Assembly: GCA_036260945.1 (NCBI GenBank)
Contig: DATALT010000002.1
Coordinates: 731,938 to 795,937, forward strand
Direction: 5' to 3'
From: Candidatus Babeliales bacterium
Lineage (GTDB): Bacteria; Babelota; Babeliae; Babelales; JACPOV01
Length of the DNA: 64,000 nt
The first letter of the stretch is position 1; each line of letters opens with the position of its first letter. Positions 49,183-59,325 of this stretch are shown one piece after another. The notes beneath the pieces are model-generated. The model did no database searches. It saw nothing but the letters and a program-made list of their open reading frames with translations, and was not told the origin of the DNA. Both the position numbers and the translations under genes were made by a program.

Positions 49183-50442
49183 CTATTTTTTTGCCAATAA
49201 CAGAATCATCGCACAAAAACTTAAGCACGCAGCATACGTAAAACCAATTGCTGGCGAAAATAAATTCCAAAGACCCCCAACAAGTGCACTTGAAATAAAA
49301 TCGCCAACGCCATCTATCGCTTGCAGAATACCGAAACCAGTTCCGCGCACATCTTCTGGAAGTAGGGTTGCTGCATGCGCCTTTTTAAGTGCTTTAACCG
49401 TTCCTGAGCTCAATCCCGCAATTCCAAAAAGAAGAAACCATAGTGATACCTGCGTCGGCTCAAAAATAAGGCACATGCTTGTTAGGCCGAATGCGCCGAA
49501 CCCAAAAATAGCCAATAACTTTTTTCGATTCACAAAATCGCTTAATGACCCAATACTGAACTCGCATAATGATCGAATAATGTTAAAAAAAACATAGAAT
49601 AGAATTACCCAACCACTTGCAATAATTGATGAACTTTTCATCACCATATACTGCTTTTGAACGCGATAAATTAAAAGCGTTTGGTTAAAATTACCAAGAC
49701 CAAAAAGAAGCACAACCCAAAGGAAATATTTAAAATCTGGCGGCAGTTGATCTATTTCTTTCAGCCACGGTTGAGGAGATTTACGCATTCGCTCGTTCTC
49801 TTTTATTTCGCGTGTAAAAACGAGGAGCGCAAATAATGAAAAAATACCTGGAATAATTGCAATAAAAAAAATCGTTCTGAATGAAACTTTGTTCACGATA
49901 AAATATGTCAGTAGTGGCCCTACAATCGCCCCAGCGCTATCGAGGGCCCTATTAAAACCAAACGCTCGCCCATAATATTTCGATGTGACGATTTTTGAAA
50001 GCCATGTATCTCGAATTGGCTCACGCATAGCCTTAAAGAGCCACGCAATCGTTTTATAAAATAGAACATTCCACACGGACGATGCTGTTCCGATCAAACC
50101 TACAAAAATAGGCATGATGCCGTAACCAGCAATCAGATAGGGTTTGTAATGAGCAACTGTATCTGCAAGGCGCCCAGATAACACTCTTGTAATCGATGCC
50201 AAGCCGTTTGACAACCCTTCTATAATTCCTAACGCGAACGCTCCATAACCGGGACCAACGAGTTGCTCAATAAACAACGGCAAAATGGGGGTCGTCATTT
50301 CGAAACAAAAATCACTAAAAAAGCTTGTTAATCCAAATCCAACAATAGTTCTATTCAACCAAGAGTGCTTAATCTTCAATCTTTTTCCTCTCCATCTCTT
50401 TTGGTAATCGAATGTGCATTTGATTAAGTATCCATGGCGCAA
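49183..50442 (-). CDS. MFS transporter
   Basis: 12 TM segments; start uncertain because the ORF-track start overlaps the gpmI 3' end by 74 nt. Confidence 0.7.
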   Translation of the reverse strand: MRHGYLIKCTFDYQKRWRGKRLKIKHSWLNRTIVGFGLTSFFSDFCFEMTTPILPLFIEQLVGPGYGAFALGIIEGLSNGLASITRVLSGRLADTVAHYKPYLIAGYGIMPIFVGLIGTASSVWNVLFYKTIAWLFKAMREPIRDTWLSKIVTSKYYGRAFGFNRALDSAGAIVGPLLTYFIVNKVSFRTIFFIAIIPGIFSLFALLVFTREIKENERMRKSPQPWLKEIDQLPPDFKYFLWVVLLFGLGNFNQTLLIYRVQKQYMVMKSSSIIASGWVILFYVFFNIIRSLCEFSIGSLSDFVNRKKLLAIFGFGAFGLTSMCLIFEPTQVSLWFLLFGIAGLSSGTVKALKKAHAATLLPEDVRGTGFGILQAIDGVGDFISSALVGGLWNLFSPAIGFTYAACLSFCAMILLLAKK

Positions 50443-51889
50443 TGTCTGCTAATTCTTTAAGGCAAGAAACATCTATTTTTTCTTTTTCAGCGTTCATTGC
50501 AATAAAGTAAACAGGATTTGTTGTATGCGATGTTTGTTCATGGCCTGTTTCGGGATCGATCATTTGCTCTGCATTCCCGTGGTCGCCAGTGATGCAAAGA
50601 ATTCCATGAGCCTTTTTCACACCTTCCCATAGTTTTTTTAATTGATCATCGAGGCACTCGATCGCTTTAACCGTCGCGTTAAAATCTCCTGAATGACCCA
50701 CCATATCAGCATTTGCATAATTTATTAAAAAAAAGTCGTACTTGTTTTCTTGCAATACTTCCAAAGCTCTTTTTGTAATTTCGGGTGCGGACATACACGG
50801 AGCGTCAGCGTAACTGCGATAACCCAGCGATGGGATGAGCACGCGCATTTCGTTGGTTAATTTTTCTTCTTTGAGCCCATTAAAAAAATAGGTAATGTGC
50901 GCATATTTTTCAGTTTCTGCTAATGCACACGTCTTTTTTCCGCTCGCGCTCAATACTTCTTTTAAGGTGTTTTTTACTTCGAGCTGCTCAAACAAAAATG
51001 GCGTATCATTATGTTTATCATACTGCGTCATCGTTATAAAAAATGAAAGTGATACGCGTGATCGAGAAAAATGAGAAAACGATTGAGCAACAAAAGGTTC
51101 TGTTAATTGGCGCGCGCGATCTGGCCTAAAATTGAAAAAAATAAGACCATCATCCGGTTCAATAGTACGCATCGCTTTGAGTTGCGTGGGCGGTACAAAT
51201 TCATCAGAAATATTTTCTGCGTAATAATATTCAAGAGCCGCGCGCCATGATTCAAATTGAATCTCTTGAGGCTCCGTTAATATTTTATAACTTTGCTCGG
51301 TTCTATCCCAATGCTGATCTCTATCCATCGCATAAAATCTGCCATGCAGAGAACCTATCGTTCCAATGCCATTTTTTTTGCACCATATCTCTAATTCATT
51401 TAAAAAATATTCAGCAGATCGTTGGGGAACATCGCGGCCATCAAGAATTGCATGAATAACTACTCGCTCAATATTATTTTCTTTTGCTGCTTTTAGAAGC
51501 GCATAAAGATGCTTAATATCGCTATGAACTCTGCCATTTGAAACTAATCCAATTATATGGAGCTTATTTTTTTTATTGATTTTTCTGAGTGCCTTAACGA
51601 GCATTTTATTTGAAAAAAACTTACCGTTCTTGATTGCAGTATCGATCCGCACCGCATCGCTTTCAATACGTCTACCGGCTCCGATCGTAAGATGCCCAAC
51701 TTCCGAGTTACCAATCCGACCTTTGGCCAAACCAACCGCGTTTCCCGATGCGGCAAGCAATGTATGCGGATACTTTTCGAGAGCCATTTGAAAAAAAGGT
51801 TTTTCTGCATGCGCTATCGCATTTCCGTTTGTTTGTTCACTGCGCCCAAATCCATCCAGTATCACTAAAACTAAGGTTTTTTTTTCCAT
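50369..51889 (-). CDS. gpmI: 2,3-bisphosphoglycerate-independent phosphoglycerate mutase
   Basis: N-terminus LVILDGFG; full iPGM length with metal-binding blocks. Confidence 0.9.
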   Translation of the reverse strand: MEKKTLVLVILDGFGRSEQTNGNAIAHAEKPFFQMALEKYPHTLLAASGNAVGLAKGRIGNSEVGHLTIGAGRRIESDAVRIDTAIKNGKFFSNKMLVKALRKINKKNKLHIIGLVSNGRVHSDIKHLYALLKAAKENNIERVVIHAILDGRDVPQRSAEYFLNELEIWCKKNGIGTIGSLHGRFYAMDRDQHWDRTEQSYKILTEPQEIQFESWRAALEYYYAENISDEFVPPTQLKAMRTIEPDDGLIFFNFRPDRARQLTEPFVAQSFSHFSRSRVSLSFFITMTQYDKHNDTPFLFEQLEVKNTLKEVLSASGKKTCALAETEKYAHITYFFNGLKEEKLTNEMRVLIPSLGYRSYADAPCMSAPEITKRALEVLQENKYDFFLINYANADMVGHSGDFNATVKAIECLDDQLKKLWEGVKKAHGILCITGDHGNAEQMIDPETGHEQTSHTTNPVYFIAMNAEKEKIDVSCLKELADIAPWILNQMHIRLPKEMERKKIED

Positions 51890-52774: not shown

Positions 52775-53516
52775 ACATTTTTTTGCTCTTTATTATCCCC
52801 ATGCACAGCGGCATGCAAAATCTTCATTCATCATTACCGATGAATTGATGATTCATCGAGTTGTTCGCGTTCTTCGCTTTGAAAAGAATGATGAATTTAT
52901 CTTATTTGATAAAGAACTTCGTAGCATCGTTATACTTACCGCTGTAGATAAACATTCCATTACCGTACAAGTTTTAGATACTCAAGAAAACATTCAACTC
53001 ACCCCAACGATTACGGTGCTTATTCCCGTCTTAAAGCGAGAAGCGCTCGAAGAAGCGATATACAATGCTGTGGAATGTGGAGCAAATGAAATCCAATTAA
53101 TGATAACCGAAAAAACGCAGCGGGCATGGGGCGGTGCAAAAGAACAAGAGCGATTAGAAAAAATTATTATCGCTGCATCTGAGCAAGCAAAACATTTTAC
53201 GCTTGCTGGTCTCAAAGCGCCAAAAGCGTTCAATGAACTTTTGCAAAGCACAAAAAAAGAACCGTTTATTTTTTTTGACGCCCAAGGAGAGCACCTTTCT
53301 CAAACGATAAAAACATTGCATGGGCAAAAGCACACCCATTTGCGTTTAATGTTTGGGCCTGAGGCAGATCTTTCTTTAGCTGAAAAAGAAACACTCAAAA
53401 AACATAACGCTTTTTGTACTAAACTCACATCTACCATTTTGCGTGCACCCCAAGCGGTTGCCGTTGGAGTTGGCGCTATTCGTTCCCTTTTAACACATGA
53501 TGATAGTGCTCAATAA
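52752..53516 (+). CDS. rsmE: 16S rRNA (uracil1498-N3)-methyltransferase RsmE
   Basis: RsmE-family length and blocks (PUA-like N-terminus, SPOUT C-terminus). Confidence 0.7.
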   Translation: MKKITTDKHFFALYYPHAQRHAKSSFIITDELMIHRVVRVLRFEKNDEFILFDKELRSIVILTAVDKHSITVQVLDTQENIQLTPTITVLIPVLKREALEEAIYNAVECGANEIQLMITEKTQRAWGGAKEQERLEKIIIAASEQAKHFTLAGLKAPKAFNELLQSTKKEPFIFFDAQGEHLSQTIKTLHGQKHTHLRLMFGPEADLSLAEKETLKKHNAFCTKLTSTILRAPQAVAVGVGAIRSLLTHDDSAQ

Positions 53517-54624
53517 GCTGAGCAATGCATTTTTCTGCACGATAATTTTGTGCAGTTTGAACTGCTCCTTGCGATAGTTTTTGATGCAAATGGTTATCGG
53601 ACGCTAAGGTTTCTAGTTTTGTTTTCATTTCATCGATATTTGCAACTAAAAATCCATTAACCATCGATTGTACAATATCGCGCGAGCCGGGAGCATCAAC
53701 CGCAATAACCGGCAACCCATTTGCCATCGCTTCTGCTAGCACGAGGCCCTGCGTTTCTGTTTTTGATGCAAATATAAACGCATCTGCTGAGCGATATTCA
53801 TGCGAAAGAATTTCTTGCGCCGGCTTTTCTATAAATCGCACTTCATTTGGACTAAATTTACAAAATCCGTATGCATATTTTTGCAATTCATTATACAAAG
53901 ATCCGTAGCCTATCAAGGTTAATTCAAATTTATTGATATCAAGCAATCGCATTGTATCGAGCAAGAAAAATAAATTTTTTTCAGTAACAAATCGAGAAAC
54001 TGTGAGCATTCGAAACCTTTTATTGTTTTTTACATGCTCGCTTGAAAAGAAATGATCCCTTATTGGAGTCGGAATAACGGTGATCGATTTTCTAATGCCG
54101 ACATCTTCCAATTGTTTTTTTATAGACGAACTGGGCGCAATAAGAAGATCGGTACGCGCACAAAAACGCTGCACTAAATAGGTGATAGTTTTTGTCGTTA
54201 CCGGTTGCGGTAGAAGTGGTACGTAATGCGCATACTCTTCGTATTGCGTGTGATAAGTAAATATAAGCGGTATCTTATTTTTATAAGCTAATTGTTGCGC
54301 AACATCCCCCAAGAGAAACGGATGATGCACGTGGATTATATCGGGGCGAAATTCTGCTATCAGCTTTTTCATAAAGGCGTTAATTCTCCAGGGAACCGCC
54401 ATATGATTGCCTTTGTGTAAGAAAGTGATCGCCGATGGAATTCTGATCACATACGATTCATCTTTGCATGGAACACCAAAATCGAGCGTTATGAGCCGAA
54501 CTTCATGGCCTCGCCCCATCAATTCTTCAATTAATATTGTAAGCGCACTCACAACACCGCCGCTATACGGCTTAAAATTATTTGAAACAAAAAGAATTTT
54601 TAATTGTCTCTGATCTTCGAGCAT
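53476..54624 (-). CDS. family 4 glycosyltransferase
   Basis: GT4 EX7E-type C-terminal domain (FASKTETQGLVLAEAMANGLPVIA). Confidence 0.8.
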   Translation of the reverse strand: MLEDQRQLKILFVSNNFKPYSGGVVSALTILIEELMGRGHEVRLITLDFGVPCKDESYVIRIPSAITFLHKGNHMAVPWRINAFMKKLIAEFRPDIIHVHHPFLLGDVAQQLAYKNKIPLIFTYHTQYEEYAHYVPLLPQPVTTKTITYLVQRFCARTDLLIAPSSSIKKQLEDVGIRKSITVIPTPIRDHFFSSEHVKNNKRFRMLTVSRFVTEKNLFFLLDTMRLLDINKFELTLIGYGSLYNELQKYAYGFCKFSPNEVRFIEKPAQEILSHEYRSADAFIFASKTETQGLVLAEAMANGLPVIAVDAPGSRDIVQSMVNGFLVANIDEMKTKLETLASDNHLHQKLSQGAVQTAQNYRAEKCIAQLIEHYHHVLKGNE

Positions 54625-54766: not shown

Positions 54767-54778
54767 GGGGTAAAAAGA

Positions 54779-54809
54779 AGGGCGAGTGGAGTGTCCCGCC
54801 TCGCCCTTA
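54779..54809 (-). terminator. GC-rich hairpin downstream of the RGG-protein gene
   Basis: AAGGGCGAG-13nt-CTCGCCCTT; on the minus strand it is followed by CTTTTTAC. Confidence 0.5.
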
Positions 54810-54831: not shown

Positions 54832-55836
54832 TTAATATGCTCTACCGCTTGTTGTTGCTACGGGTTGCTTGATCGTCATTGCTGGATTATCTCTTTGTGC
54901 CGGCTGCGATACATTCATCATGCCACTCTGATCTATTTGGCTTGATATATCAGCAGGCATATTTTTTTGTAAACCTGATAAGTGCAATTGTACTTTTGAA
55001 ATTCGGTCATCAAGCTTATCTATTTGGCCTTTGAGTTTTTGCGCTTGCGCACTGTTTTTATCTGCAATTGCATCATATTGAGTATGTAAAGCATCCATAT
55101 GCTGACCATAATCATCACGAAGTTTTTTCAATTGTGTTTGAACGTCATCCCATTTTTTATCTTGTGCAAGCTGATCCAACGCCATTGGATCCATTCCTGG
55201 CTCTATTTCTTCATCAACTAAATCGTATCCCCAATATGGATAGTAATCGTTGTACACAACACTAACCGCTTGTTGAGGAATTGCGTAATCATACCAAAGT
55301 GCTAATGCGCCTAAACCGAGAAGTCCTGCGCCCCATCCCCATGCCCATGGAGAAAGGCCCCAACCCCAGCCCCAGCCGCCCCACCAGCCGTTGCCCCAAC
55401 CGTGGTTACGCCAGCCATGATTTCCATGATGCGCAAATGAACGATTTCCTCGTGCGCCACGACCAGCACCCCTGCCTCTACCCATTCCACGCGCGCCACG
55501 CCCTGCACCTCTACCTGCAGCTCCTCTGCCCATTCCGCGAGCCCCCCCGCGACCCATACCTCGAGCGCCAGTTCGCGATATTCCGCGTCCGCCACCGGTT
55601 CGCGCCATCCCGCGGCCTCCACCAGTGCGAGCCATACCTCGTCCGCCACCGCGCCCCATACCGCCACGGCTCATTGATCTACCACCGCCACCGCGACTCA
55701 TGCCTCTACCACCGCCGCCACGTCCACCGCCTCCGCGGCCACCACCACCGTGGCCACCACCACCGCGAGCATCAAGCATATCAACAGCCATTACGCTGAT
55801 GATTGCTACGAGCACTATCGCCAAAAATTTCTTCAT
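54832..55836 (-). CDS. secreted low-complexity protein with RGG/GGGR repeats and a Trp-Gly-rich segment
   Basis: Signal peptide; about 25 degenerate GGGR(G/M) repeats; HGWRNHGWGNGWWGGWGWGWG block; C-terminal coiled-coil. Confidence 0.6.
   Translation of the reverse strand: MKKFLAIVLVAIISVMAVDMLDARGGGGHGGGGRGGGGRGGGGRGMSRGGGGRSMSRGGMGRGGGRGMARTGGGRGMARTGGGRGISRTGARGMGRGGARGMGRGAAGRGAGRGARGMGRGRGAGRGARGNRSFAHHGNHGWRNHGWGNGWWGGWGWGWGLSPWAWGWGAGLLGLGALALWYDYAIPQQAVSVVYNDYYPYWGYDLVDEEIEPGMDPMALDQLAQDKKWDDVQTQLKKLRDDYGQHMDALHTQYDAIADKNSAQAQKLKGQIDKLDDRISKVQLHLSGLQKNMPADISSQIDQSGMMNVSQPAQRDNPAMTIKQPVATTSGRAY
55300..55770. repeat. GC-rich degenerate tandem repeat (CCACCGCC-like units) encoding the RGG repeats
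   Basis: Local GC island in an AT-rich genome; all alternative-frame ORFs across it are repeat artifacts. Confidence 0.7.
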
Positions 55837-56080
55837 CCTACTCTCCTTTTTTTGCGCACTTCGCGCATGTATACTTATGATTATTTTACTATTTGCAATT
55901 AAAACAACGCAATTAATTTTATCATTTGTGCTTATTAACCTTATTTTTCCGCATTTTTTAAGGTATGCGTGAAAAATTTATCTGTAAAAGAGAAACAGGA
56001 AAAACAAAAATTCTTCTATCGCTATAATGAATAAAAATGATGTAGTTTGAATAGCGAAAAACAAATGAAGGAGAAAAAAA

Positions 56081-56710
56081 ATGCGTACAATTAAAGCTTT
56101 TTTGGTAATTGCGCTCATTGCACAACCATTGCAAGCAAAACTTCTCAATTTTGAAAACCAAACTACAGCACAAAAAATTGCATTGGGTGCTGGAACTTTG
56201 GGCTATTTAGGATATCTGGGATATAAATATTATTCTTGCAAAAAAGAAGTCGCAGAAAATAAACACCTTATTAAACAACATGAAGGAAAAGGCACAGTTC
56301 CTGTACCAAAAAAAATTGAAGAAATGTTTGAAGCGAAGAACTTAGCATCATTAGCAAAAAATCCTAACCGCGAATACCGCTGGAAACCTCAAGTGGAACG
56401 AATCCAAACAGAAAAACGCAAGTTCGTTCCGGGTTGCCTCACTCATATAACAAGATCGCTATGTCATCCATTTGTTGTTGAAAATCTATACATTACAGTA
56501 AGTGAAAAAGATCCCGCGCAACTATTAATAAAGTCAAATTCACAGGGTGAAGACAGTGATGCAAGCGCCATAGAAGATTATGGACAAAACCGCGTTTCAT
56601 TGCACGATTCAAAATTCAAAGTCAACGGATGGAAAGCGGCGGTTTTAATTCAAGCATCTATTGGATTGGGATTATTATGCCAACAAGCGGTACGTTTAAT
56701 GGGTAAATAA
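56081..56710 (+). CDS. secreted/membrane protein, paralog 1 of a 5-gene tandem family (bilobed N-terminal hydrophobic domain plus C-terminal anchor)
   Basis: GAAGGAG Shine-Dalgarno; signal peptide then IALGAGTLGYLGYLGY; C-terminus AAVLIQASIGLGLLCQQAVRLMGK. Confidence 0.55.
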   Translation: MRTIKAFLVIALIAQPLQAKLLNFENQTTAQKIALGAGTLGYLGYLGYKYYSCKKEVAENKHLIKQHEGKGTVPVPKKIEEMFEAKNLASLAKNPNREYRWKPQVERIQTEKRKFVPGCLTHITRSLCHPFVVENLYITVSEKDPAQLLIKSNSQGEDSDASAIEDYGQNRVSLHDSKFKVNGWKAAVLIQASIGLGLLCQQAVRLMGK

Positions 56711-56822
56711 ATGAAAAGCTAACGCTTGTTTAACAGTTTCTAGTAAACGCATGTATTTATTTAAAAATTGTTACAGATTGCTATACTGAATCGGCTTTAA
56801 CAATTTTTAATGAGAGATTTTT

Positions 56823-57293
56823 ATGAAAAACTTTATGCGCATCTCGGCGCTCTTAATGGTTCTTACTTTGCCGATACACGAATCGATCGCAGAGCAACAA
56901 TATGGGTTTAGCGCTGATTCTTTCTCGAATGCAAAAAAAATTGCTGCCACCGCTGGCATCGTTTTTGGAATTGGATTTACTGCATATCAGCGCCATAGAG
57001 CAAAACAATTTATACAAAGTGAAAAAAATAATAAGAATGTCGATAGATCGCACACACTTAAAACTATCTACGCAACTCTCGGCAGCGTCACCAGCGCCAC
57101 GAAAGATCATTCATTCTTCCCCTGGCAAGTTCAAACGTCAAAATTTATTGTATGTAAAAATGGCTCGGAAGACGAAATTCACGTACTTACGCCACAATTT
57201 GGTCCGTTAGTGGGATCTCTGCCAAAAGCACTCTTTACGGTTGGCGCATTTGCACTAATCGGATCGCAAATGCTGCGCTCTCCTGGTAAATAA
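56823..57293 (+). CDS. paralog 2 of the tandem family
   Basis: Signal peptide then IAATAGIVFGIGF; C-terminal FTVGAFALIGSQMLRSPGK. Confidence 0.55.
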   Translation: MKNFMRISALLMVLTLPIHESIAEQQYGFSADSFSNAKKIAATAGIVFGIGFTAYQRHRAKQFIQSEKNNKNVDRSHTLKTIYATLGSVTSATKDHSFFPWQVQTSKFIVCKNGSEDEIHVLTPQFGPLVGSLPKALFTVGAFALIGSQMLRSPGK

Positions 57294-57359
57294 TTTTTCT
57301 AAGAGTTTTATTTAAGGGATCGCTCAATTGCGGTCCCTTCCTTTTAAGGAGACCTCAAA

Positions 57360-57914
57360 GTGAAAATTCGTACATTGCGTATAGTTTTAATAATGTCGCT
57401 TTACTGCATTCCAGCATCAGTTATTAGTGCACCGGTCATTAATGCGATCGACTCAAAGACAATAAGCCTTTTTTCAGTCGGGGCAGCGACCGGCTTGCTT
57501 ATCTCGCTTTTTCATCGCGATTGGGTGCTTGATAAAGTCGCACAAATTAATCAGATGCACGGCTCTGGTGATTTATGCGATTCGACGCTTTGGAGTCCAT
57601 TCTCGTTTAACGGGATCGATGATACGGTAATGGGCAAACCATTCGCGAAATCTTCAGAAGAAACTCGCGTGGAAGAGCAATTTCAATACAACTTAATCAG
57701 TGATAGAGTTCACTTTCCAACCCTCATGTCGACTCGCCATACAGTAACTAACGATTATTTAGTTAAAAAAGATAAGAGAGGTAAAAAATTTGCAATTAAA
57801 ACTCATACGAGTTTTCATACAGTTGAAGTTGGCAGCATTTATCCTTACATCTTTGGAACCGCACTCATAACCCTTGGCACTGGTTATGCATTCACGCTTT
57901 TAAATAAAAAATAA
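57360..57914 (+). CDS. paralog 3 of the tandem family
   Basis: GTG start; signal peptide then FSVGAATGLLISL; C-terminal FGTALITLGTGYAFTLLNKK. Confidence 0.5.
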   Translation: MKIRTLRIVLIMSLYCIPASVISAPVINAIDSKTISLFSVGAATGLLISLFHRDWVLDKVAQINQMHGSGDLCDSTLWSPFSFNGIDDTVMGKPFAKSSEETRVEEQFQYNLISDRVHFPTLMSTRHTVTNDYLVKKDKRGKKFAIKTHTSFHTVEVGSIYPYIFGTALITLGTGYAFTLLNKK

Positions 57915-57924
57915 ATCGACCACA

Positions 57925-58473
57925 ATGAATTATTCTTCTGGCATCTTAGTATTGCTCTTATTATTTTCTCAAAATGCTATTCAGTCATTTGATCAAAAAA
58001 ATTTGTATGCTGCAGCTGGAATCGGTGCACTCACTTTAGTAGGAGTGCAATGGTGTTATTTGCATCAAGTTTCAAAAAAAATAGTTCATGAAAAAAGAAT
58101 CCCTTTTATCTTGGAAAAAGAAGATTCATTAAAAGATTATTTACAACCATATTGCCCTATCTTTTCAAGCACGCTTAAAAATCAAATTGAGCCAGAGGAG
58201 TTAAATAAAAAAAAGAATGGCGAAACAATTGAATCAACAATTATCTTCAAAAAATATAAATTCCCTTTTTTGTTTTACATAGAAAATAATCTCACTTTGG
58301 AGTACACCATTCAAGGTGCGGAAAATCTATTTTCGGAGAATAAAATCGATCTGGGAAAGATTAAAAAGCATACCGCACAAGTAAAACCTGTTTTTTATAC
58401 GGTTCCATTATTGAGTTTTTTTGCCGGATGGATGGGCGCACGAATAACGCAATCGCATCCAAAAAAAATCTAG
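57925..58473 (+). CDS. paralog 4 of the tandem family
   Basis: Signal peptide then YAAAGIGALTLVGV; C-terminal LLSFFAGWMGARITQSHPKKI. Confidence 0.55.
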   Translation: MNYSSGILVLLLLFSQNAIQSFDQKNLYAAAGIGALTLVGVQWCYLHQVSKKIVHEKRIPFILEKEDSLKDYLQPYCPIFSSTLKNQIEPEELNKKKNGETIESTIIFKKYKFPFLFYIENNLTLEYTIQGAENLFSENKIDLGKIKKHTAQVKPVFYTVPLLSFFAGWMGARITQSHPKKI

Positions 58474-58659
58474 AATTATATTTATTCAACTCACCTGAAG
58501 AACCGGTGTTCACCAATCAATCTTTTTATCTTCGACAATATTGCTACCTATGTATAAAAAATTACCCCTTTGGTTTATTTTTTCAGATTGACATTTAAAT
58601 CAATTATGGCAAACTAGTTAATATAACACCAAAAATCAATAGTTATCGAGGAGAAATTT

Positions 58660-59325
58660 ATGTTTAAATCTAAAAAATTAGCGATAATGCTTATGCTGCT
58701 AACGTTGCACCTAGCAATAAGCTCGAAATCTAATGCGGCCAGCGATGTATCAACATTCGCTTTAGGAACTGGCGTGGGAGCAGCTCTAGTTGGCTTTAAC
58801 TGGCTTCAAACTAACGTTTATTCTTATTTGATTAACAAATACAACCAAGAAAATGCTCCCCTAGCACCACAAGATATACAAGAACAAATAAGACGTACTG
58901 CAAGCAATAATTATCAAGCTTTCGAGCAGGATGTAAAAAAAACGCCAATACACTTAAGCGCTATTACCCTAGATCAGATTAATACACAAAAAACAACAAT
59001 CGCAAATCAATTCTATATCGGTCACAATGAGCACTCACAACAGTTTAAAGCTCAGGAAATGAAAAATCCCGTCTCGTTAACGGTGCCTGAAGATAGAGTG
59101 ACCTCTTTCTTCCCTTATATTTTTAAAGCTGATTCACACTTAAATATATCTTACTCAGTAAATAATGATGATAAGTATATTTATTCAACTCCCACCGCCG
59201 TAACATCGCACACCGCTCAAGTTGGCGTAAGTTCTCACGCTTATTTGAAAACGTTTGGTGTTTGCTGCGTATCAGGATTAATGGCTCTTGGGACAAAAAA
59301 AGCAATTGAATATTTTACACGATAA
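58660..59325 (+). CDS. paralog 5 of the tandem family
   Basis: Signal peptide then FALGTGVGAALVGF; C-terminal GVCCVSGLMALGTKKAIEYFTR. Confidence 0.55.
   Translation: MFKSKKLAIMLMLLTLHLAISSKSNAASDVSTFALGTGVGAALVGFNWLQTNVYSYLINKYNQENAPLAPQDIQEQIRRTASNNYQAFEQDVKKTPIHLSAITLDQINTQKTTIANQFYIGHNEHSQQFKAQEMKNPVSLTVPEDRVTSFFPYIFKADSHLNISYSVNNDDKYIYSTPTAVTSHTAQVGVSSHAYLKTFGVCCVSGLMALGTKKAIEYFTR

Follow-up and report, generated by a model that had tools for sequence, protein, structure and literature searches.

To our knowledge, RG/RGG regions are usually considered only as intracellular binders of nucleic acid, and the literature on them defines such regions by tri-RGG, di-RGG or tri-RG motifs. In Argonaute hooks, the stretches between Trp residues are disordered and polar and about ten residues long or longer. 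Membrane-active peptides combine Arg with closely spaced Trp, and the mycobacterial heparin-binding haemagglutinin (HBHA) joins a coiled-coil or helical oligomerisation domain to a polycationic repeat tail that binds heparan sulphate at the bacterial surface. Here we describe a gene in a 64-kb stretch of DNA (hereafter the window; contig DATALT010000002.1 of assembly GCA_036260945.1) from a Babeliales bacterium. Its product carries, behind a putative Sec signal sequence, an Arg/Gly-rich (RG) tract, a Trp-Gly (GW) block and a folded core. All calls are computational, from sequence and predicted structure, and they tentatively favour an exported protein that would bind anionic membranes or polymers through its polycationic arm and Trp block.

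The Babeliales are part of the Dependentiae (TM6), a widespread and almost uncultured phylum of intracellular parasites of protists, and we know of no function for most exported proteins of these bacteria. Consistent with the host-associated organism assumed in an initial annotation of the gene, which was made from the letters of the window, cultured Dependentiae replicate inside a protist, as described for Chromulinavorax (PMC6561590). In Chromulinavorax, Sec is the export route and 44% of coding sequences (CDS) carry predicted signal peptides, lipopolysaccharide genes are absent and outer-membrane vesicles occur (PMC6561590).

A conserved gene in a GC-rich island

The gene lies on the minus strand at 54832..55836, exactly where the initial annotation had placed it, and is a complete CDS of 334 aa plus stop codon with an ATG start. 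It was taken from the open reading frame (ORF) list, and the same frame is present in the Logan contig SRR12844112_155113, which is identical to the window over the 9,040 bases compared. A Shine-Dalgarno sequence, GGAGAG, is located 5 nt 5' of the ATG (55841..55846, minus strand) and the same GGAGAGTAGGATG is found in the sister genome introduced below. At the other end, 26 nt past the stop codon, a terminator scan and the sequence itself reveal a terminator-like GC hairpin (GGGCGAG...CTCGCCC) followed by a T run (54772..54806, minus strand). An operon with the downstream glycosyltransferase family 4 (GT4) gene is not supported, given this intervening terminator and a 207-bp gap.

The sister genome (GCA_016191325.1, contig JACPOV010000008.1, 'Candidatus Dependentiae bacterium') stems from a different sequencing project, and its TypA and GT4 proteins are 96.8% and 90% identical to those of the window, respectively. 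It contains an intact, syntenic orthologue of 325 aa with 86% identity, in a shared neighbourhood made up of iPGM, a 244-249-aa gene without a Pfam match, RsmE, GT4, the target gene and an array of small ORFs. In the RG tract, the two copies are distinguished by two indels, of 8 residues and 1 residue, and by a few substitutions. Comparison of the window and sister copies by the Nei-Gojobori method gave a ratio of non-synonymous to synonymous divergence (dN/dS) of 0.078 for the RG tract (dS 0.59), 0.034 for the GW/hydrophobic segment of aa 132-182 (dS 0.50), 0.28 for the core (dS 0.33) and 0.145 for the whole gene (dS 0.475), the value for the neighbouring GT4 gene being 0.086 (dS 0.65). Across segments of the gene, dS ranges from 0.33 to 0.68 and is comparable to that of GT4 (0.65). 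The low dN/dS thus goes along with normal synonymous divergence, and the low-complexity parts are the most strongly conserved at the protein level. Ratios of 0.08 for the tract and 0.03 for the GW block therefore indicate a selected coding sequence rather than an artefact of assembly; this is a real gene, maintained by selection.

The tract coincides with a GC island of 61-66%, compared with 39.6% GC for the 64-kb window, and is the only Gly- and Arg-rich stretch in the six-frame translation of the window. Its codons are native: all four Gly codons are mixed, the choice of Gly and Arg codons is as in the rest of the window, and the GC content at third codon positions is 0.42 against a background of 0.35. 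Because codon choice for Gly and Arg is native, the island is an effect of amino-acid composition and not foreign DNA; nor is it an RNA gene, since an Rfam scan of the whole window returned no RNA family. The tandem repeats of the tract are short and diverged at the DNA level (27 nt x3 with 75% matches, 15 nt x3.9 with 84%; 75-86% overall), which makes repeat collapse in assembly unlikely. Antisense to the RG tract, the plus strand carries two shadow ORFs rich in Pro, Arg and His, at 55281-55799 (172 aa) and 55625-55972 (115 aa), which could mislead gene callers. As genes they were rejected as by-products of the GC-rich repeat, selection acting in the minus-strand frame.

The coding strand of the tract also contains a G7 homopolymer (55542..55548, minus strand; codons CGC GGG GGG GCT), which on the plus strand is C7 and represents the sole G/C run of at least 7 in the window. 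It reads G7 in run SRR12844112, where the ORF is intact, and G8 in the assembly of SRR12844111, where the resulting frameshift leaves products of 108 and 233 aa; in run SRR12844119, a contig begins 16 nt after the homopolymer. The difference between G7 and G8 could reflect either slipped-strand (phase) variation or a homopolymer or coverage error. The homopolymer is missing from the orthologue, and a recurrent phase-variable homopolymer in the family was rejected, the homologues having no G/C run longer than 5. TypA, RpoD, GT4, RsmE and two neighbouring hypothetical proteins of the window exactly match NCBI proteins attributed to a Candidatus Babeliales bacterium (HEX2978350.1 to HEX2978366.1).

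The RG tract and the Trp-Gly block

The RG tract spans aa 24-131 (55444..55767, minus strand). Its 108 residues comprise 55 Gly, 25 Arg, 10 Ala, 8 Met, 4 Ser, 3 Thr and 1 His (51% Gly and 23% Arg), with no Lys, Asp or Glu. The net charge of the tract is +25, and the arm of the mature protein as a whole carries about +27 and no negative charge. The near-pure Gly/Arg composition reported in the initial annotation is thus borne out, over 108 rather than about 125 residues. We assessed resemblance to eukaryotic glycine-arginine-rich (GAR) regions as the presence of tri-RGG, di-RGG or tri-RG motifs with spacers of 0-4 residues. With 21 RG, 7 RGG and five tri-RG clusters, the tract reaches the GAR motif density through its tri-RG clusters, strict tri-RGG being absent. 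AlphaFold2, run on the family alignment, assigns a predicted local distance difference test score (pLDDT) below 50 to aa 25-161, and the tract is accordingly modelled as disordered as well as highly charged.

Next to the tract is a His/Asn linker with the Trp-Gly block (aa 132-160; 55357..55443, minus strand), delimited by sequence, interface energy and dN/dS. The part rich in His, Asn, Gly and Trp covers aa 137-160, and HGWRNHGWGNGWWGGWGWGWG, the WG/GW-rich sequence quoted in the initial annotation, is indeed present at aa 140-160. Eleven Trp residues fall within the 60 residues that precede the YYPYWGY motif of the core, at spacings of 1-4 residues. The best 19-mer of the block scores -14.5 kcal/mol on the Wimley-White interface scale and -8.8 kcal/mol on the octanol scale, and on neither scale does any other segment of the protein come near it in favouring the membrane. 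The Trp block is strongly interfacial in hydrophobicity, and the majority of long family members have a GW block.

The block runs into a hydrophobic Gly/Trp/Leu segment (aa 161-185; 55282..55356, minus strand), modelled by AlphaFold2 as a beta-hairpin that packs on the core and, alternatively, a candidate membrane helix. The Gly/Trp/Leu/Ala stretch of aa 161-182 reaches only about 1.0 on the Kyte-Doolittle scale, and the counterpart of aa 161-185 is not hydrophobic in P0012, P0016 and P0020. Densely packed Trp running into a hydrophobic segment fits a membrane-interface segment and not a soluble Argonaute hook. The resemblance to Argonaute-hook GW motifs suggested earlier is therefore not sustained, as the Trp residues lie only 1-4 apart and the block continues into the hydrophobic segment and the modelled beta-hairpin.

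The folded core and its family

The remainder of the chain is confidently modelled as a fold. In the AlphaFold2 model based on the family alignment, aa 170-290 have pLDDT values of 87-97, with helices at 219-225, 229-256, 263-292 and 295-304. Strands are placed at 169-173 and 180-185 (pLDDT 79-87), so that in the model the segment of aa 161-185 belongs to the fold rather than forming a membrane helix. A core-only model (aa 161-303; mean pLDDT 86.9, predicted template modelling score 0.80) contains two strands, a short helix, an ordered loop with YYPYWGY, and antiparallel helices at 229-255 and 263-292; the helical C-terminal domain described in the initial annotation is thus helical in both models. 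Along the sequence, an IPQQAV helix and the aromatic motif Y..YYPYWGY with its ordered acidic loop (aa 186-218; 55183..55281, minus strand; pLDDT about 90 and alignment) precede an LAQ..W helix and the antiparallel helical hairpin that ends in KVQLHLSGL (aa 219-304; 54925..55182, minus strand; models and alignment). In this protein the motif reads YNDYYPYWGY, followed by the acidic loop, the two long helices and a Gln/Pro/Thr-rich tail. The tail (aa 305-334 plus the stop codon; 54832..54924, minus strand) has pLDDT values of 50-60 and is kept in the close orthologue only. Taken together, the models predict a compact acidic domain composed of a beta-hairpin, a YYPYWGYG loop and a helical hairpin, and the mature protein would be a block polyampholyte in which a cationic arm and a Trp/Gly block are joined to a core of net charge -8.

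Searches with Pfam and NCBIfam gave only sub-threshold coiled-coil noise for the protein (NPV_P10, HrpB7 and TraP, the last at an E-value of 7e-5 yet with 22 bits against a cut-off of 135) and no RNA-binding domain. A sequence profile search of the PDB gave only coiled-coil noise with E>0.1, and a fold comparison of the core found no match. Spy/CpxP/ZraP (LTXXQ / Metal_resist) or another periplasmic family was matched neither by hidden Markov model (HMM) nor by fold.

A word-indexed search identified P0001 (the same gene with a truncated product), P0002 (a fragment, 51% identical) and P0003 (237 aa, the same architecture), together with P0004 and P0005, which share the N-terminus only. A profile of the conserved region, run against 1.84 billion cluster representatives, returned 22 matches at E<=0.001, about 18 of them genuine (member E-values 1e-87 to 5e-5) and the rest coiled-coil noise. 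A scan of GTDB genomes added one locus, L003, with a 104-aa ORF; a metagenome-contig scan with the core profile confirmed no locus, and a word-indexed search with the family alignment was dominated by low-complexity candidates and added no member. Full-length and family-profile searches returned only bacterial relatives and no eukaryotic protein, and we found no account of the family in the published literature. Homology searching, as proposed in the initial annotation, yielded about 18 bacterial relatives, without a eukaryotic GAR protein or a match in Pfam, NCBIfam or the PDB. The family is without annotation or structural relative; its general kind, an exported bacterial helical domain with a low-complexity cationic tract, is known.

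Family members share the motifs Y..YYPYWGY(G/D)L and LAQ...W(D/E), the helical hairpin and (K/R)(I/V)QLH(L/I)xG(L/I), all of which are present in the window protein. Invariant alignment columns are Y195, Y199, W202, G203, W229, L236 and H285, and P200, Y201 and Y204 are nearly so. By comparison, the tract is rich in Arg and Gly in the window protein, P0007 and P0008, in His and Gly in P0015, P0012 and P0009, and in Arg, Ser, Thr and Ala in P0003 and P0011, and it is absent from P0017, P0019 and the L003 ORF. The tracts have in common that they are Gly-rich, cationic through Arg or His, and contain aromatic residues, with Lys at 0-3% and acidic residues at 0-6%; acidic residues are zero in the tracts of the Arg-rich members, and Arg, His and Gly are used despite an AT-rich genome. 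Two loci are syntenic, L001 with the long P0003 and L003 with a short member: each has ValRS on one side and, on the other, a 735-765-aa multi-transmembrane tetratricopeptide repeat (TPR) protein, and the flanking genes are orthologous (56% and 47% identity). The tract and GW block were therefore gained or lost between orthologues. The orthologues suggested as a check in the initial annotation differ in the tract, from the 8+1-residue indel of the sister copy to family tracts that are Arg-, His- or Ser/Arg-rich or absent. Judged from the alignments, the RG tract is dispensable across the family, whose conserved, defining part is the folded core.

Every member whose source could be named through neighbouring housekeeping genes belongs to the Dependentiae, and the named neighbours of the L001 ValRS are exclusively Babeliales or Dependentiae. 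The ValRS-TPR locus of the sister genome holds no second paralogue, only unrelated small exported ORFs in an array.

Signal sequence and predicted topology

The putative Sec-type signal sequence, MKKFLAIVLVAIISVMAVDMLDA, occupies aa 1-23 (55768..55836, minus strand) and was called from its hydrophobicity and a layout shared in the family. The N-terminus reads MKK / FLAIVLVAIISVMAV / DMLDA followed by Arg, that is, an n-region with KK, a 15-residue h-region, Ala at -1 and Arg at +1. On the Kyte-Doolittle scale, 19-mer windows reach 2.42 and the most hydrophobic 10-mer 3.59. By inspection, this N-terminus has the characters of a type I Sec signal peptide, and the same n/h/c layout recurs in 13 other full-length members or look-alikes. 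In full-length members, a positive n-region and an h-region are followed by a c-region that mostly ends in Ala, and then by Arg-Gly-Gly. The signal peptide of the initial annotation is upheld by this conserved layout with Ala at -1, and the pattern would match cleavable Sec signal peptides of N-in orientation.

In the short members (P0017, P0019 and the L003 ORF), the core follows the signal sequence directly and would therefore be an exported domain. The homologous core of long members should then reside in the same compartment, and the tract would be exported too. The alternative to export of the tract is an N-out hairpin, against which the positive n-regions argue. We infer that the whole chain is exported, as we do the polyanion it would bind and its final location, which may be the periplasm, the surface, vesicles or the host.

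A tentative reading and its alternatives

We tentatively interpret the product as an exported protein whose polycationic arm and Trp block bind anionic membranes or polymers, an account that could well be correct. After export, the Arg arm would bind polyanionic surfaces electrostatically, candidates being the bacterium's own phospholipid head groups or envelope polymers and the host vacuole membrane. Beside the arm, the Trp-Gly block would partition into the membrane interface, and the function that is conserved, probably oligomerisation or the binding of a partner, would fall to the helical-hairpin core. His-rich variants of the tract would become charged only where the pH is acidic, for example in a food vacuole. 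The RG tract appears, from its sequence, to be like a eukaryotic GAR in composition only, that is, a convergent low-complexity tract and not an acquired or homologous host-like domain. What would be unusual is that strong purifying selection maintains a disordered RG-type tract of 108 residues on the exported side of the membrane in an intracellular bacterium.

Several observations weigh against this interpretation. Judged by E. coli, the 25 Arg residues behind the signal sequence, beginning with the one at +1, do not favour Sec export, and this Arg load is the weakest step in the export reasoning. In addition, aa 161-182 could be a true transmembrane helix, in which case long forms would have a cytoplasmic core. 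The Arg/aromatic chemistry fits nucleic acid as well as lipid. Furthermore, the matches listed include more than 120 Dependentiae ValRS clusters (55-60% identity) as compared with about 18 family members, which indicates that the family is patchy in the phylum, missing or below detection in most Dependentiae, and not a universal envelope component.

This patchy distribution also counts against an unlikely but serious alternative, in which the product is a periplasmic or envelope housekeeping protein, such as a cohesive matrix or tether protein, a chaperone or a metal-binding protein, with the tract as a spacer or ligand-binding region and no contact with the host. In P0015, P0012 and P0009, the His/Gly tracts look like metal-binding sequences, and a small helical-hairpin core is found in many periplasmic stress proteins. 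Purifying selection and synteny point the same way, as does the orthologous GT4 gene, glycolipid-synthase-like, which adjoins the gene both in the window and in its sister genome and is 2 kb away in L005. However, a terminator separates the gene from GT4, and the Arg-only tract of the window protein offers no metal ligands except 8 Met and 1 His; nor did the searches by HMM and fold connect the core to Spy/CpxP/ZraP or another periplasmic family.

A host-directed mimic is improbable. In this scenario, the protein would reach the host cytoplasm or nucleus and engage RNA, ribonucleoprotein (RNP) condensates, transportin, arginine methyltransferases or Argonaute. The tract formally reaches the tri-RG definition and is under strong purifying selection, and its use of Arg and not Lys, together with aromatic residues, is the chemistry of RNA-binding disordered regions; the phylum is also obligately intracellular, with putative effectors that are Sec-dependent (PMC6561590). 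Yet relatives, including a syntenic orthologue, have a His-rich or Ser/Arg-rich tract or none, codon usage is native, and the searches found neither an RNA-binding domain nor a eukaryotic homologue. The Trp residues, 1-4 apart in a hydrophobic and partly folded segment, are unlike those of Argonaute hooks, and the whole-gene dN/dS of 0.145 and the synteny resemble a housekeeping-type gene, not a fast-evolving effector. Since 44% of CDS in one cultured member of the Dependentiae carry signal peptides (PMC6561590), a signal peptide alone is weak evidence of delivery into the host. Moreover, near-identical RGG N-termini are carried by the unrelated exported proteins P0004, P0005 and P0018, so that the module recurs in bacteria with no connection to the RNA biology of a host. 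The mimicry put forward in the initial annotation, of host proteins that bind RNA or phase-separate, is not supported by an optional tract with native codons and no eukaryotic homologue. A specific version is doubtful to a similar degree: the protein would be released into the protist through vesicles or vacuole lysis, its arm would join RNP condensates or the nucleolus or bind host RNA, and the Trp-Gly block would help to cross or disrupt the vacuolar membrane.

Very improbable is an inner-membrane hairpin, in which the N-terminal segment and aa 161-182 would form transmembrane helices and the RG tract a cytoplasmic loop binding the bacterium's own DNA or RNA, for example in condensing the nucleoid of the infectious particle. 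The positive-inside rule would predict the RG tract, with a net loop charge of +25, as a cytoplasmic loop, and the Wimley-White octanol scale permits insertion of aa 150-182. Particles of Dependentiae do contain a condensed nucleoid (PMC6561590). By contrast, every member has the positive n-region and Ala-containing c-region of cleavable N-in signal peptides, the second segment is weak (Kyte-Doolittle about 1.0), non-hydrophobic in several members and modelled as a beta-hairpin, and short members have no loop at all.

Finally, an assembly artefact of the GC-rich repeat or a decaying pseudogene, a failure that the initial annotation had itself envisaged, is hardly credible and already largely refuted: one of three run-level assemblies is frameshifted at G7/G8, another breaks 16 nt downstream and the exact 334-aa product is missing from a 15-billion-protein collection, but the sequence is intact and identical in SRR12844112, the orthologue from another project is intact, lacks the homopolymer and gives a tract dN/dS of 0.08 (0.078), the tandem repeats are short and diverged, a Shine-Dalgarno site and terminator are present, and the NCBI accession numbering would leave one protein between two neighbours.

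The gene defines a small unannotated family whose fold is confidently modelled and unmatched. If the arm binds membranes or envelope polymers, as we tentatively propose, the protein would offer a simple example of charge-driven anchoring. If the arm instead reaches the host, it would represent a new class of effector, and release into the protist would make it the first Sec-exported bacterial RGG-type effector, with a convergent eukaryote-like disordered region. The variation among orthologues, in which the tract is Arg-rich, His-rich or absent, provides a natural experiment on the role of such tracts.

Neighbouring loci

The downstream neighbour of the gene is the GT4 glycosyltransferase (53476-54624, minus strand; sister copy L013:5001-6149), the best NCBIfam matches of which, monoglucosyl-diacylglycerol synthase and GlcN-phosphatidylglycerol synthase, are sub-threshold. 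A GT4 gene that is 50% identical (L005:3325-4467) lies 2 kb from the family member P0008.

A tandem array of five small ORFs (209, 156, 184, 182 and 221 aa) is located at 56081-59325 on the plus strand. Each member has an N-terminus resembling a signal peptide, contains a hydrophobic stretch rich in Gly and Ala, and is hydrophobic at the C-terminus; identity to the first ORF is only 14-23%, and there is no Pfam match. The array is kept in the sister genome (L013:1214-3605), which has a further array of this type, with ten ORFs, flanked by a TPR protein and ValRS (L014:2647-6913).

The proteins of 735-765 aa that adjoin family members at L001:10743-12950 and L003:6239-8536 (both minus strand) combine TPR repeats at the C-terminus with a multi-transmembrane N-terminal half that contains an FQFDD motif. 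From its sequence, this protein looks like a TMTC/PMT-type GT-C glycosyltransferase. A TPR protein of 769 aa is found near ValRS in the sister genome.

The sister contig JACPOV010000008.1 also contains a polymorphic-toxin cassette (L011:13899-17090), consisting of a 302-aa Ntox21/Hint_2 protein and two CdiI_N immunity genes and placed between iPGM and an MFS transporter gene split in two. In the window, the interval between the MFS-like and iPGM ORFs (about 49183-51889) holds no ORF of matching size; no motif search was made there.

Comparison with known systems

The RG tract shares with the GAR regions of fibrillarin, nucleolin and FUS a disordered Gly/Arg composition, clustered RG/RGG motifs and the use of Arg and not Lys. 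Unlike those regions, it is bacterial, follows a predicted Sec signal and is accompanied by neither RRM, KH nor another RNA-binding domain, and it has no strict tri-RGG. It is also optional within its family, and no sequence relationship to a eukaryotic protein was found; the likeness is compositional.

The Trp-Gly block has in common with the Argonaute hook of GW182/TNRC6 its GW/WG dipeptides flanked by Gly, Asn and His, whereas its 11 Trp residues are 1-4 apart, continue into the hydrophobic segment and lie partly in the modelled fold. No Pfam GW-domain match at E<=0.1 connects it to the GW module of the Listeria type.

Among bacterial proteins, P0004, P0005 and P0018 share the junction 'signal peptide-Ala-RGGGG(H/R)GGGG', with (L/S)xA ahead of the first Arg, and a Gly/Arg/His tract, while differing in their unrelated C-terminal domains, which are without the YYPYWGY core, and in their genomic contexts. 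P0004 and P0005 (L016:1001-2128) have a common conserved C-terminal domain of their own, with no Pfam match. The N-terminal Gly/Arg/His module may thus recur in exported bacterial proteins.

Indolicidin, tritrpticin and lactoferricin-type peptides also combine Arg that binds lipid phosphate with dense interfacial Trp. These peptides are 13-25 residues long, whereas here separate blocks of Arg (108 residues) and Trp (about 30 residues) are fused to a folded domain, for which no lytic activity is known. HBHA, with which no homology is known, differs in that its tail, rich in Lys, Ala and Pro, stands at the C-terminus, while the tract of the window protein is N-terminal and built of Arg and Gly; the predicted signal peptide and the Trp-Gly block of the window protein likewise have no counterpart in HBHA, which is without a classical signal peptide. 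Nevertheless, with a helical domain and a low-complexity polycation in both proteins, HBHA would be the closest functional analogy for the proposed mechanism.

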